This document shows positions 2,690 to 63,477 of a stretch of 64,000 bases of DNA, one piece after another. Origin of the DNA: an uncultured Chloroflexia bacterium. GTDB lineage: Bacteria; Chloroflexota; Anaerolineae; Anaerolineales; Villigracilaceae. The stretch lies in NCBI GenBank assembly GCA_963709295.1, contig CAVPVW010000003.1, positions 403,283 through 467,282 of the forward strand, in the 5' to 3' direction. The notes beneath the pieces are model-generated. The model saw only the letters and a program-made list of their open reading frames with translations. It had not been told where the DNA came from and made no database searches. Every line of letters starts with the position of its first letter. The stretch's first letter is position 1. The translations under genes were made by a program, and so were the position numbers.

Positions 2690-3964
2690 ATGTTCCCGGG
2701 TTTCCGAGTCGAGTTTGATTTGCTTTCATTGATATTGGGTGCCATATTGGCCACGGTTTTTTGGTGGTTGATCCAATTCTTGCGCCCGCAATGGAAACAA
2801 TTTCGCGAAAGCCTTAGAAAGAAAAAGGGCAAGGAAGTCGAAAAGCCATCAAAGGGACTTGAGGACAGGTATCGCAAGCTTGTCATGAGACAAGTACAGT
2901 CGATGCACATGGCAGCATCCCTGTTTTCTTTGGATGAGATCGTCATCCCCCCATTACTTTTGGCACCGCCGGCCCGCATCGAACCAGGCATGACCCATGC
3001 AGAAGAGGATGTGGTCAGCCAAACGCTTCCATACATGCCAGCGTTTCCTGAACTTGCTGCCGCATACAGGGCATCGAGCTTCTCGCTTGCCCAGGCCCTA
3101 GCAGGGAATACAAATCTTGTGCTGATCGGACAACCTGGTTCTGGAAAAACTGTTGCATTAGCCCACTTCGCAAATCAGCTGATAAACCGAGCGCCTGAGA
3201 CCAGCCATCTCAGAGGATACCTTCCATTTATCGCTCACATCAGCGACCTTGATATTCCTCCAAAATCAAACGACTTGATTTATTCCATTACCGATATCCT
3301 TTCAGAGCAGGCATCGGTATTCGATGCAGGGCGGATGCCAAAATTTGTTAGGCAGATCTTCGAGAACGGACAGGCCATTCTTCTGCTTGACGGGCTCGAT
3401 GAGCTTGCCCCTGAAGCTCTCAGGCAGGTCAGCGATTATGTAAAGCAAGTAATAAAGAATTACCCAAAAACGAAGGTGGTAGCAACCGGTACGCCGGAGT
3501 ATATTGACGGGTTTTTCAACATGGGTTTTTCACCCCTCGTGGTCCTTCCCTGGGGCATTGATCAACAAAAAGATTTTCTCGATAAATGGGCCAATCTATG
3601 GACCAGATTTATTTCAAACGAGGCATGGGCACAATCCTCTGTCCTCAGTGTCGACCCGGTCCTTTTGAACCAATGGCTGAGAACCGACGTGGTCAATCTT
3701 ACGCCACTCGAATTCACATTAAAAACATGGGGGGCTTATGCAGGCGATATCCGCGGGTCGCGCCCCATGGACTTCGTGGAAACGCATGTCCGCCGAATGA
3801 TGCCCGCCGGGATTCCCCTCGAGGCATTGGGAGTCCTTGGGTATCAAGTCATCGCCAACACTTCAACGATTTTCGACAGCCACAAAGGAAAGTCGTGGAT
3901 AAAGTCCTTTGAGCCCGCCGATGAGGAAAATGCAAGTACATCCGATTTCTGCGGAAGCCAGTAA
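2690..3964 (+). CDS. STAND/NACHT-type P-loop NTPase with an N-terminal transmembrane helix (N-terminal part of the gene)
   Basis: TM helix at aa ~10-30. Walker A GQPGSGKT, Walker B ILLLDGLDEL, and a GTPEYIDGF segment. The ORF runs straight into the HEAT-repeat ORF in another frame. Confidence 0.6.
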   Translation: MFPGFRVEFDLLSLILGAILATVFWWLIQFLRPQWKQFRESLRKKKGKEVEKPSKGLEDRYRKLVMRQVQSMHMAASLFSLDEIVIPPLLLAPPARIEPGMTHAEEDVVSQTLPYMPAFPELAAAYRASSFSLAQALAGNTNLVLIGQPGSGKTVALAHFANQLINRAPETSHLRGYLPFIAHISDLDIPPKSNDLIYSITDILSEQASVFDAGRMPKFVRQIFENGQAILLLDGLDELAPEALRQVSDYVKQVIKNYPKTKVVATGTPEYIDGFFNMGFSPLVVLPWGIDQQKDFLDKWANLWTRFISNEAWAQSSVLSVDPVLLNQWLRTDVVNLTPLEFTLKTWGAYAGDIRGSRPMDFVETHVRRMMPAGIPLEALGVLGYQVIANTSTIFDSHKGKSWIKSFEPADEENASTSDFCGSQ

Positions 3965-5273
3965 TTCAGATACGCCACCTGTCAATCCGGACGAAATAAT
4001 CGTTGATCAATTTGAAAGCACACAACAAAAGAAAACGAAAAAGAAAGGCGGTGCAAAAGCGCCTGCACCTAAAGCCAGCTTGCTCTCCAAGCTGACGGAT
4101 AGCGGGCTGCTCGAAAACCGCCGTAATGGACGCATACGTTTTGTTCATCTGACCTTTGGAGGGATTCTTGCCGGGGAAGTAATGAATTCGGCCTCCGCGT
4201 CGGTTATCCTCAACCAGGAGCCATGGAGTGGGCGCAGCCTGGCGTTAAATTCTTTCGCAGCCAAGGGCGATGCGTCCGAGATGGTGACCACATTGCTTTC
4301 GCAACAAGATGAAATGCTGGATCGAAATAAATTAATCGCAGGGCGATTCTTACGAGATGCTCCCAGGCAGGCCTCCTGGCGTTCAAAGGTGATGTCCGCT
4401 CTGGTGGAGTTGATAAAGACTGACAAGCCGGTAGCACTTCGAATGCAGGCAATCGCTTCCATCGCCTTAAGCGAAGATCAAACCGGATCGATGCTGTTCA
4501 GGCAGCTCCTGCAATTATCAGATAAGGATATTCGGTGCATGGCCGTACTGGCCAGCGGCGCTATTCGAGATAATAAATCAACCGATCAATTGATAGCATT
4601 AATCGGAGACATCAACCCACAAGTTCAACATGCGGCATGCCTTGCGCTGGTATCCATTGGCACATCTCAATCCCTAGAGGCAGTCGCTCGTGCACTGCTT
4701 CGGGGAGACGAGGGTTTACGCAGAGCAGCTGCCGAATCACTCTCAAACAACCGCGTCGAAGGACATGCCGCCCTGATGGAAGGCAGCAGCGCCAAGGATA
4801 TTCTCCTCCGGCGAGCGGTGGTCTATGGACTGGCAAGACTCCACGAGAAGTGGGTCACTGAAATTCTTGAGAAAATCCAGGTGGAAGATGAGCAATGGGT
4901 GGTCAGAAATGCGGCTGTCGAGGTGCTTGAATCAAGGACCAGGGTAAGCCCGCGTGTCCCCAGAAAACTGCAATCACCCCACGAAGCCCCATGGCTGATA
5001 GAATATGCTGGCAAGTATGGCGTTGGGATTGCTCCCGGCGCGCCTACAACGGACCTGCTTCTTCGGGCACTGAAGAGTGAGAAGGAAGAAGAACGCCTGG
5101 CAGCCTTGGGTTACTTGAAGTACATGCCATCCGAGAGCGTTATGAGCGGGCTCTATCAAATCTTCTTCTCGACTGATGATGCGCCAATGAAGGAAACTAT
5201 ATACCTGATCCTATGGGAATTTGCACTGGGAGGGATTAAAATTCCTTCTCCGATGCAGTACGGGCTGGGCTAA
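3909..5273 (+). CDS. HEAT / PBS-lyase repeat region; most likely the C-terminal sensor half of the same NACHT gene, joined by an apparent frameshift at ~3909-3964
   Basis: RFVHLTFGGILAGE resembles the post-NTPase FxH..F.E.LAA winged-helix motif of NACHT proteins. It is followed by repeated HEAT-like units (e.g. NPQVQHAACLALVSIG, RRAAAESL). It overlaps the upstream ORF by 56 nt in a different frame. Confidence 0.5.
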   Translation: MSPPMRKMQVHPISAEASNSDTPPVNPDEIIVDQFESTQQKKTKKKGGAKAPAPKASLLSKLTDSGLLENRRNGRIRFVHLTFGGILAGEVMNSASASVILNQEPWSGRSLALNSFAAKGDASEMVTTLLSQQDEMLDRNKLIAGRFLRDAPRQASWRSKVMSALVELIKTDKPVALRMQAIASIALSEDQTGSMLFRQLLQLSDKDIRCMAVLASGAIRDNKSTDQLIALIGDINPQVQHAACLALVSIGTSQSLEAVARALLRGDEGLRRAAAESLSNNRVEGHAALMEGSSAKDILLRRAVVYGLARLHEKWVTEILEKIQVEDEQWVVRNAAVEVLESRTRVSPRVPRKLQSPHEAPWLIEYAGKYGVGIAPGAPTTDLLLRALKSEKEEERLAALGYLKYMPSESVMSGLYQIFFSTDDAPMKETIYLILWEFALGGIKIPSPMQYGLG

Positions 5274-5325
5274 GCCAAATTCTCTGCGGTGTGTTCCTCA
5301 GGGAATTCAGTCAAAGGATTTCAAT

Positions 5326-61866: not shown

Positions 61867-61894
61867 GTTAGCTCCTTGTTTATTCAAGCAAGTT

Positions 61895-63477
61895 TTAATC
61901 ACCGACTACTTGCGGTCTGACCGCTCTCCAGGATTCGTTTTCTGTAATTTTTTCGTACATACGGGAAATTCTGAAGAGTTCGCCTTCCGAAAAATCGGGG
62001 CCTAGGAAATGAATCCCTATGGGAAGTCCATCCGTATCAAAGCCAGCCGGGATGGAGATACCGGGAATCCCCGCATGGTTGGCGGGAACGGTCAATTGAT
62101 CGGCGTATTGCATCAAAACCAAATCACCATAAACGCCACCCATCTTAAATGCAGTCGCAGGAGTAGTCGGCGTGAGAAGAGCACTGAGGCGATAATTTCC
62201 ATTTGGGTCAAATATCTTATCAAAATCACGCCGAATTAAAGCGCGGACCTTTAATGCTCGAATATAATATTGCTCGCTGTATTGGGCGGCAGAAACATAC
62301 ATCCCCATTAGCACCCGTAACTTTGGTTGAAGCCCAAATCCCTCTCCGCGGGACTTCTTATACATCTCGCTGAGAGTCTCGACTTGGGCTGGCGAGCGGT
62401 AACCATACTTTACGCCATCGTATCGATGTAAATTCGATGCTGCCTCCACCCGGGAAATGACAAAATAGGCGGGGATGCCGAATTTAGTATGCGGCATGGG
62501 GACATCTTCGACGATTTCAGCGCCTTGCTTTTCAAGCAACTCGGCCGCCCGTATGACAGCCTTTTTTATTTCCGCGGGAACTTCTTGTTCCTGCACATCC
62601 CCGGTTTCAGCATCGATATAAGTAATCTTGAAATAATCAGGGGATAAACCGATGCGCATTCCCTTGACACCATTCTCAATTTCCTCTAAATAATCGGGGA
62701 CCGGAGCAGTCGCCGCCGTCGAATCCCTTGGGTCCCGGCCAGCTATCACCTTCAACAGCAATGCGGCATCGGTCACGTTTCGCGCGACAGGTCCGGGACA
62801 ATCCAACGAGGATCCGAAGGCAATTAACCCGTATCGTGATACCCGGCCATAGGTGGGTTTCACCCCCACCACGCCACAAAACGCGGCGGGCTGACGGACT
62901 GAACCAGCAGTGTCCGTCCCCAAGCTTAATGTCCCTCGTAGGCTGCAACGGCAGCTGCAGAACCGCCCGATGAGCCTCCCGGAACGTAGGCTGTGTTCCA
63001 CGGGTTGCGAGGTGCTGGCTGAAAAGCGGACGATTCGCTGGATGAACCGTAGGTAAACTCATCAAGATTTACCTTCCCTAAAATAACAGCACCTGCTGAC
63101 TCCATTCTCTCAACCGGTGTCGCTGTATAGGGGGATGTGTAATTCGCCAGTATTTTCGAAGCTGCGGTTGATAATGTACCTTCAACACAAAAAATGTCTT
63201 TCACGGTTGTGGGGACGCCTGCAAGCGTTCCCACAGTCTCTCCGGCAGCAATCTTTCTATCTACTTCATCAGCTTGTTTGCGGGCACGCTCGCTGGTCAC
63301 ATTAATGAACGCATGAACTTTGTCAGGTTCCTCCAGGCGATCACCGCCAAGCGAGCCGGCTACACCATCAACATGCATAATATGAGAGAGATTGGCTTCG
63401 AGCACCTCTCTCGCGGATATCTCTTTACGTGCGACAAGTCGGGCAATATCTTGGGCGGTCAGCGCAAGGATATCCAT
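61895..63477 (-). CDS. gatA: Glutamyl-tRNA(Gln) amidotransferase subunit A; apparent 1-nt deletion in a C-run at ~62939-62946
   Basis: Amidase signature split across two frames: ...GGSSGGSAAAVAA, then LRGTLSLGTDTAGSVRQPAAFCGVVGVKPTYGRVSRYG. Restoring one C (GCAGCCCTACGAGGG) gives AAVAALRGTLSLGTDT. An essential gene. Confidence 0.8.

Follow-up and report, generated by a model that had tools for sequence, protein, structure and literature searches.

The window, by which we mean the whole 64-kb stretch of DNA analysed, contains ten genes (~18% of its genes) in which the reading frame is disturbed by a total of twelve one-nucleotide changes (Table 1), which corresponds to 12 per 64 kb (~19 per 100 kb). 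The sign of each indel is given relative to the orthologous DNA and protein of relatives, against which all twelve sites were checked. A preliminary description of this DNA had reported recurrent single-nucleotide frameshifts in at least ten genes, gatA among them, and every site was confirmed by these comparisons at a coordinate within ~25 nt of that first given.

Table 1. Genes of the window affected by one-nucleotide frame changes (aa, amino acids; ~, approximate position).
Gene or product	Coordinates (strand)	Product as deposited	Frame change	Repaired product
NACHT-HEAT STAND NTPase	2690..5273 (+)	424 + 454 aa	+1 at 3951 (CT[G]CGG)	860 aa
cofE (F420-0:gamma-glutamyl ligase)	7387..8155 (+)	81 + 198 aa	+1 A at 7579 (CC[A]GAG)	255 aa
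XdhD/YgfN-like molybdopterin oxidoreductase	24087..27066 (+)	800 + 203 aa	+1 T at 26461 (T -> TT)	992 aa
Conserved 240-aa membrane protein ('NERD-like')	42006..42728 (+)		+1 at ~42235-42240; -1 at ~42369-42375 (A7 -> A6)	240 aa
DnaQ-DinG fusion helicase	42806..45602 (+)	281 + 652 aa	+1 at ~43635	931 aa
CbcL-like multihaem cytochrome c / cytochrome b fusion	49570..52418 (+)	three pieces	+1 at ~49999-50003; +1 at 50396 (A -> AA)	948 aa
YeeE-like sulphur-transport protein	52422..52995 (+)	111 + 84 aa	+1 at ~52679	190 aa
comEA	56452..56986 (-)	149 aa, C-terminally truncated	+1 at 56542 (AAA -> AAAA on + strand; TTTT coding)	177 aa
Peptidase M55 (DppA-like)	61039..61864 (-)	first ~22 residues lost	+1 at ~61793	274 aa, start GTG 61864
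gatA	61895..63477 (-)	183 + 368 aa	-1 at 62932-62935 (CCCC -> CCC on + strand)	527 aa

Relatives used for comparison

DNA of relatives, at 75-94% identity, covers ~61 kb of the window. The closest relative MAG, L001/L088 (~90-91% DNA identity; ERZ25039527 contig_10368, MAG MFD04716.bin.1.280), belongs to the Nanopore-only MFD-LR set of the Microflora Danica series, and L083/L087 (ERZ25039503 contig_34901) probably comes from the same Nanopore-only catalogue. The remaining four, L084, L085, L086 and L089, are JGI/Logan contigs of 49 kb together, assumed from their source and size to be of short-read type; L086, a JGI contig, has 94.3% DNA identity to the window. All evidence was drawn from assembled sequence rather than raw reads.

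Effects on individual genes

That reading sense continues in a neighbouring frame, as had been proposed, is borne out by single Pfam domains split across frames. The F420_ligase match of cofE is divided into 4-60 and 58-218 and becomes one stretch (4-218/218) once repaired, and MoCoBD_2 in the XdhD/YgfN-like gene is divided into 5-143 and 149-283. The cofE gap at 7579 is present against both L088 and L089, and the indel at 3951 in the NACHT-HEAT gene is visible against the same two contigs; homologs of the latter are single ORFs of 856-863 aa that cover 100% of the fused query. About 120 homologs of the XdhD/YgfN-like protein among the matches listed are ~990 aa long, and over 5.75 kb of alignment with L086 the site in this gene is the sole coding indel.

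In the gene for the conserved 240-aa membrane protein, the double shift is masked because no stop codon arises. The stretch between the two slips, residues ~78-122 (~45 residues), is read in the wrong frame; translated in the alternative frame, 42223-42483 matches the orthologs in L083, L084 and L085. Compensated shifts of this kind were sought with a scan of 24-aa fragments; tblastn HSPs merge across the out-of-frame stretch. Two slips in this gene had been anticipated and both hold. The NERD label attached to it finds no backing in Pfam, the 42006..42728 product having no match at E<=0.001, unrepaired or repaired.

The DnaQ-DinG fusion switches frame at 43629-43636 relative to L083, L084 and L085. 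Its homologs among the matches listed, of which 119 of 120 are other than the window's own product, include 16 at 88-96% identity, all 931 aa long with RNase_T and helicase domains. The CbcL-like ortholog in L083 is one ORF of 932 aa, shorter than the repaired gene because an upstream start was chosen for the latter; frame switches lie at 50003-50007 and 50397-50422, and the gap at 50396 is visible against L001. Gaps against L001 are likewise visible in the YeeE-like, comEA, M55 and gatA genes. Orthologs of the YeeE-like protein have 190 aa, and its Sulf_transp match runs in one stretch after repair. In comEA the HHH_3 match ends at 40 of 65 and reaches 6-65/65 once repaired, and 13 of 15 cluster members among those listed have 177 aa. 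The Peptidase_M55 match begins at profile position 23 and is restored to 1-263/264, the orthologs having 272-274 aa. Repaired GatA matches Amidase over 9-444/445 and aligns end to end with ~40 metagenome contigs.

Across the ~61 kb covered by relatives, no further frameshifts were found in the window. A frameshift at ~191 (ctaA) belongs to the relative L001/L088 and not to the window; candidates at 1897, 12982, 38530, 39526, 61883 and 63836 mark gene boundaries or indels between genes; and a gap pair at 4007/4013 reflects ordinary substitutions, relatives having N or H where the window has Q. The tRNA-Leu gene (39565-39646) has no indel, its sequence agreeing exactly between the window, L083 and L084.

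Privacy, repair and selection

At all twelve sites the frame is continuous in every relative compared, and the indels are thus private to the window's contig. Twelve one-nucleotide edits turn all ten genes into uninterrupted ORFs, full-length Pfam matches are regained, and nine of the ten products (all except the CbcL-like protein) have exactly the length of their orthologs. One-nucleotide indels are the only lesions present, the repaired genes having no nonsense codon and no larger deletion. Downstream of each shift dN/dS is 0.02-0.13, compared with 0.04-0.19 in intact neighbouring genes; selection on the disrupted genes is equal to that on their intact neighbours and shows no relaxation.

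These observations bear on the possibility that the indels are real and very recent mutations, marking incipient pseudogenization, genome decay or a mismatch-repair-deficient lineage. In support of this, all of the frameshifts are present in the deposited record, and the gatA deletion turns up again in a second assembly, made from the same strain and discussed below. However, extrapolated to a genome measuring a few Mb, the density found here would imply ~1000 disrupted genes, none of the twelve events is common to relatives at 91-94% identity, a nonsense codon, a larger deletion or a rise in dN/dS is nowhere seen, and gatA, normally indispensable, is among the genes broken. Decaying genomes, such as those of Mycobacterium leprae and recently host-restricted symbionts, also carry nonsense mutations, deletions and expanded IS elements, evolve under relaxed selection and have lesions in common within a lineage. 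The window resembles such pseudogene waves in its many frameshifted genes, yet it has none of their other lesion signs. We regard real mutation as a very improbable source of the twelve changes.

The relatives argue in the same direction, since the sister long-read contigs are broken in other genes and the short-read contigs are not. L001/L088 carries three frameshifts of its own (in ctaA, M55 and a luciferase-like gene), and L083/L087 carries ~9 (in AFOR, plsX, a methyltransferase, a GH3 gene divided into 4 pieces, and others). In L084, L085, L086 and L089, no frameshifts were found in 49 kb, whereas the rate seen in the long-read contigs predicts ~8 (P ~2e-4).

An intact copy from the same organism was also sought. 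No exact match was present in the protein collection for ten repaired proteins (YeeE, M55, NERD-like, cofE and comEA products, junction variants included). Metagenome contigs scanned with repaired GatA for a high-accuracy contig of the same species gave best matches of <=77% amino acid identity, and among the members of the 90% clusters, compared by eye rather than by computed identity, none looked near-identical to the window.

Sequence context of the indels

Ten of the indels are insertions and two are deletions. Runs of at least four bases hold only two of the twelve sites, both of them the deletions (A7 and C4), while 2-4 insertions lengthen runs of 1-3 bases, at least two are clearly outside homopolymers and four are not exactly placeable. 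The earlier suggestion that several slips lie in short homopolymers is correct for these runs. It was right about the TTTT run of comEA and the C run of gatA, and wrong about M55, in which the slip lies outside the CCC run, a run that is equally long in the relative. The predominance of insertions, apparently mostly outside homopolymers, is against the textbook Nanopore signature.

The +/-10 nt around the twelve sites show no enriched k-mer; GATC, considered as a marker, lies near three of them, yet is not enriched beyond chance. This bears on a further possibility, that the frame is restored in vivo by programmed +1/-1 ribosomal frameshifting or by transcriptional slippage. The neighbouring frame does continue the reading sense at every site, and one site is an A6/A7 run. 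However, it is the only site with a run long enough to slip (>=6), no heptamer or other motif is common to the sites within +/-10 nt, the distance from shift to zero-frame stop varies from 5 to ~100 nt, and ten unrelated genes are affected. The frame change is moreover absent from all orthologs, the closest homologs listed being single-frame at each site, and therefore there is nothing conserved to be programmed. The likelihood of recoding appears negligible.

Two features of the distribution may point to the stage at which errors arose. The last 22 kb of the window hold nine of the twelve sites (post hoc binomial P ~0.005), which tells against the explanation preferred below, and at 3951, 43635, 52679 and 61793 the inserted base lies among clustered substitutions relative to the nearest relative. 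Both features, together with the excess of insertions, would be consistent with a fault of the consensus stage and not of basecalling, co-occurring strains having been collapsed by Flye or Medaka into a single consensus, yielding spurious one-nucleotide insertions where the strains differ. This would be a sub-mechanism of assembly error and not an alternative to it. The gatA deletion counts against it, being found also in a k-mer assembly and hence not a product of Flye or Medaka, and we consider strain collapse a possible but doubtful contributor.

The gatA deletion in a second assembly

The second assembly, L170, is a Logan contig from run ERR11561443 and represents the same strain as the window. 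The two align without gaps over 1751 nt at 99.89% identity and share the gatA deletion, so that at least this indel is in the majority of a read set. Their two mismatches are each G>A at CGATTC (GANTC); at the first (63032), G is found in the window, L001 and 55 other relatives, and at the second in the window and L001. Exchanges of A and G at methylated motifs are a systematic, methylation-associated error of Nanopore basecalling (bioRxiv 10.64898/2026.01.14.699587), and both substitutions resemble such miscalls. The window's own twelve sites differ from them in being indels, without enrichment of a methylation motif. Among the genes of the window is one for an N6_N4_Mtase that has a RAMA domain.

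Microflora Danica reads are deposited at ENA (ERR prefix) if Nanopore and at NCBI if short, and a literature search for the platform of ERR11561443 found no mention of it. Given the substitution pattern and the ERR prefix, L170 is probably Nanopore-derived and not independent of the window; it probably represents the same Nanopore reads and so would provide no independent check, which weakens the support that it lends to real mutation. Since the deletion is present in a k-mer assembly, it is not a Flye or Medaka slip but already exists at the level of the reads or k-mers. A systematic error of the reads would explain this; that the deletion is real is much less likely. If ERR11561443 were an Illumina run, the gatA frameshift would be real.

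Assembly error as the probable explanation

It is very likely that the twelve frame changes are assembly or basecalling artefacts of a long-read-only metagenome assembly and not mutations of the organism. We favour this explanation because the indels are private, their repair is clean, selection is intact, the long-read sisters are alike, the short-read contigs are clean and gatA is among the genes struck. The preliminary description had likewise preferred residual indel error to pseudogenization. The real genes would then be intact, the deposited contig having one extra base at ten places and one missing at two, and these surplus or missing bases would account for the split and truncated gene calls. 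The errors may have come from low coverage combined with context-specific basecalling or consensus error. The contig, of 1,021,900 nt in the NCBI/ENA record, is at 1.02 Mb typical of long-read assembly from an uncultured soil or sediment member of the Anaerolineae; we infer that its source was long reads, most probably Nanopore, processed with Flye plus Medaka.

Errors of this kind have precedents. As in Nanopore-only genomes and MAGs, private one-nucleotide indels fragment conserved genes and are repaired by one base (PMC9262707, PMC12313526), and the pattern recurs in sister MAGs, one from the MFD catalogue and one presumably so. Unlike in Nanopore-only genomes, where deletions in long homopolymers are the classic error, the changes in the window, whose contig is presumed to be of that platform, are mostly insertions and apparently mostly outside homopolymers. 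For Nanopore bins below ~40x coverage, short-read polishing is required to avoid frameshifts (PMC9262707). The IDEEL test gives a measure of such frameshifts, and polishing with short reads or tools of the proovframe type can remove them.

Implications

The value of the finding is practical, as an annotation hazard, rather than biological. Automated annotation had been expected to report a false wave of pseudogenes. The deposited contig already carries split gene calls, ~18% of the window's genes are mis-called in the record and truncated products have entered the public protein collection. Taken at face value, these would be pseudogenes or missing functions, for example gatA, cofE, comEA and an extracellular-electron-transfer cytochrome in three pieces. 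The masked double shift, which leaves ~45 wrong residues in a 240-aa protein of the right length, means that some errors escape checks based on length, such as those of the IDEEL type.

It is very improbable that some of the frameshifts are real in the DNA of this free-living member of the Anaerolineae, gatA being the foremost candidate because its deletion recurs in the second assembly of the same strain. If this were true, either Gln/Asn transamidation and other functions would have been lost very recently, or one-nucleotide indels would be read through in some unrecognised way. On the preferred explanation of assembly error, sister long-read MAGs used by GTDB as species representatives are equally affected, and frameshift-aware handling is needed wherever such MAGs are the source for metabolic reconstruction, for counts of pseudogenes or for alignments of protein families.

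Frameshifts in the window

A preliminary description, made from the sequence alone, had identified single-nucleotide frame changes in at least ten genes of the window, and all twelve of the sites it named were borne out by split Pfam matches, DNA alignment or protein-level scans (ten are +1 and two are -1). Comparison with orthologs of close relatives, which it had proposed as a check, gave a 1-nt gap or a frame switch at each site. The window itself is Anaerolineae (Chloroflexota) DNA with a G+C content of ~51% and ~55 genes. The closest genome found was MAG MFD04716.bin.1.280, whose contig_10368 (ENA ERZ25039527; 523,611 nt) is collinear with the window at ~90-91% DNA identity and provided loci L088 (window 1-15268) and L001 (window 50295-64000). 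ERZ25039503 contig_34901 (loci L083 and L087; ~75% identity) spans window ~14.9-54.8 kb, JGI contig L086 (94.3% identity) spans 22141-27889, and JGI contigs L084 and L089 and Logan contig L085 were also compared. The ~61 kb of the window covered by relatives yielded no additional frameshift; a candidate at ~191 proved to be an error in the relative.

Single-nucleotide frame changes in the window, the evidence for each and the length of the repaired product
Gene	Window position	Alignment evidence	Pfam evidence	Repaired length (aa)
NACHT-HEAT	3951	1-nt gap against L088 and L089		860
cofE	7579	1-nt gap against L088 and L089	F420_ligase split 4-60 and 58-218 across adjacent frames	255
XdhD-like	26461	1-nt gap against L086, the sole coding indel in 5.75 kb	MoCoBD_2 split 5-143 and 149-283 across adjacent frames	992
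NERD-like ORF (42006-42728)	near 42237 (+1); near 42370 (one A lost from an A7 run)	protein-level scans		240
dinG	43629-43636	protein-level scans	RNase_T ORF adjoins helicase ORF; DEAD match begins at profile position 18	931
CbcL-like	50003-50007	protein-level scans		948
CbcL-like (second site)	50396	1-nt gap against L001
yeeE	52679	1-nt gap against L001		190
comEA	56542	1-nt gap against L001	HHH_3 match ends at 40 of 65	177
M55	61793	1-nt gap against L001	match begins at profile position 23	274
gatA	62932	1-nt gap against L001		527

The paired slips in the NERD-like ORF were the most delicate call of the preliminary description, and it was correct. This ORF has the same length as its orthologs, yet residues ~78-122 bear no relation to them; the alternative frame gives ...LKGLTNDYTLYHYNTPVSHLLVGPAGVWTILPYFQRGTITYEK, which matches. 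Such damage leaves the length unchanged and would be missed by length-ratio checks.

Several other features were recorded. A compact F420 cofactor cluster (6688-11754; F420-dependent oxidoreductase, cofE, PNPOx-like, nitroreductase-like, cofD, cofC and luciferase-like monooxygenase) is kept in L088 and L089. A multihaem c-type cytochrome cluster (proteins of 337 and 479 aa and the CbcL-like cytochrome c/b fusion of 948 aa) precedes genes for a YeeE-like sulphur transporter and for a Sulf_transp-rhodanese protein. This region (45882-54249) is found in L083 and missing from L084 and another JGI contig, and looks like a clade-variable electron-transfer or sulphur module. A tRNA-Leu(GAG) at 39565-39646 on the minus strand (47.8 bits, cut-off 29; Rfam, 300-nt stretch searched) is identical in the window, L083 and L084, and is not defective; that an Rfam scan of the entire window at the gathering threshold gave no hit reflects a filter effect of the tool.

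Repair, selection and recoding

Twelve single-base edits yield ten uninterrupted ORFs, none with an internal stop codon. Nine match their orthologs exactly in length; the CbcL-like product exceeds its 932-aa ortholog because an upstream start was chosen in the repair. Pfam matches become unbroken in the repaired proteins (F420_ligase 4-218/218, HHH_3 6-65/65, Peptidase_M55 1-263/264, Amidase 9-444/445). Homologs are likewise undivided: DnaQ-DinG is 931 aa in 16 of the 16 listed homologs at 88-96% identity, XdhD-like homologs are single proteins of ~990 aa, and NACHT-HEAT homologs (856-863 aa) cover 100% of the fused query. Downstream of the shifts, dN/dS against the nearest ortholog was 0.02-0.13, compared to 0.04-0.19 in 19 intact neighbouring genes (Nei-Gojobori). 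Therefore, the frames destroyed in the deposit were under normal purifying selection. Genuine decay should bring lesions of several types, relaxed selection and lesions that are shared, and none of these was found. Programmed frameshifting is excluded in practice, as neither a conserved site nor a slippery motif was detected: none of the twelve shifts occurs in any ortholog, and the +/-10 nt around the sites hold no enriched k-mer.

Sister assemblies and provenance

Relatives on Flye-style contigs carry private frameshifts of their own, and in different genes. In contig_10368 these lie in ctaA (traced residue by residue; L088 ~7502), M55 (L001 ~9667) and the end of a luciferase-like gene. In contig_34901 (L087 4122-6558; L083 2468-4308 and 6938-7956) AFOR is split into 487+116 aa, plsX into 275+60 aa and a GH3 glycosidase into four, and a methyltransferase is among the further genes hit. 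Neither the window nor the JGI contigs are interrupted at any of these positions. At least one of the frameshifted sister contigs is a GTDB species representative. Four JGI/Logan short-read-type contigs (49 kb in total) showed no frameshift after removal of gene-boundary matches, although the pooled long-read rate (24 per ~141 kb) predicts ~8 (P ~2e-4). Another JGI contig, L082 (3300043305, Ga0484316_00033458; 3.25 kb, 82% identity), has a DinG homolog split into 255 + 474 aa and numerous 1-nt gaps at scattered positions. As a possible further error-prone, perhaps long-read, assembly, it was left out of the short-read controls.

The MAG containing contig_10368 belongs, by its MFD (Microflora Danica) name, to the MFD-LR long-read catalogue, which was built from Nanopore reads only, with Flye assembly and one round of Medaka polishing (PMC12313526); contig_34901 was placed in the same submission on the basis of an adjacent ERZ number and the contig naming alone. 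Earlier work by that group showed that Nanopore bins under ~40x coverage still require short-read polishing against frameshifted gene calls (PMC9262707). We infer that a pipeline of this kind produced the source contig. As the preliminary description had warned of automated annotation, split and truncated products (424, 450, 800, 240, 281, 652, 111, 149 and 183 aa) are already in the public protein collection, all on one NCBI/ENA contig of 1,021,900 nt. The errors thus sit in the deposit itself and were not added downstream.

Insertions account for ten of the twelve events. Some slips do fall in short homopolymers, as first described, but most of the insertions seem to lie outside them. The bias recurs in the sister contigs (~19 of the 24 events overall), which points to a common technical cause. 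Consensus collapse of co-occurring strains is a candidate, since several insertions lie within clusters of substitutions. Nine of the twelve sites fall in the last ~22 kb (42000-63000; post hoc binomial P ~0.005), with only one indel in window 14.9-42 kb; coverage may drop locally there, or strains may be heterogeneous.

The gatA deletion in a second assembly

A near-identical counterpart of the 183-aa GatA fragment, P0401, lies on L170, a Logan contig of the same strain from run ERR11561443. L170 aligns to window 62250-64000 with two mismatches and no gap, and shares the gatA deletion (CCC where CCCC is expected). This recurrence pulls against an artefact: were ERR11561443 an Illumina run, the gatA frameshift would have to be real. 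However, both mismatches (window 63032 and 63621; L170 1908 and 1319) are G in the window and A in L170 within the identical context C[G/A]ATTC, a GANTC site; the overlap contains two CGATTC sites, and each differs in this way. At the first, G is shared by the window, L001 and a further 55 relatives, and the L170 base places Leu at a Ser/Asn position where 127 of 128 GatA homologs have S, N, T, A, G or H; the second is G in both the window and L001. Bacterial methylation has been described to leave motif-bound G<->A miscalls in Nanopore data, sometimes in >50% of reads (bioRxiv 10.64898/2026.01.14.699587). Furthermore, MFD Nanopore reads are archived at ENA and short reads at NCBI, and the ERR prefix fits the former. 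On this evidence L170 is probably not an independent witness; the simplest reading is that the Nanopore reads which produced the MAG also went into this k-mer assembly. Its deletion then places the gatA error in the majority of reads, as a systematic read-level error and not a Flye or Medaka slip. In keeping with this, the window contains a gene (22989-24065) for an N6_N4_Mtase that carries a RAMA domain, a CcrM-like architecture. Together with the sequence context, this suggests that the source organism methylates adenine at GANTC and that the raw Nanopore reads contain miscalls linked to it.

Significance

Repair, dN/dS, recoding, assembly comparison and provenance all support residual indel error, the interpretation originally offered. 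We regard the twelve indels as very probably artefacts, and it is highly improbable that some of them are real. The window shows a well-known weakness of MAGs built from Nanopore reads alone, namely frameshifted genes. The lesson is a practical one: about one in five of the window's genes is wrongly annotated in the public record. For the organism, the frameshifts are neither a wave of pseudogenes nor recoding, and their biological interest is low.
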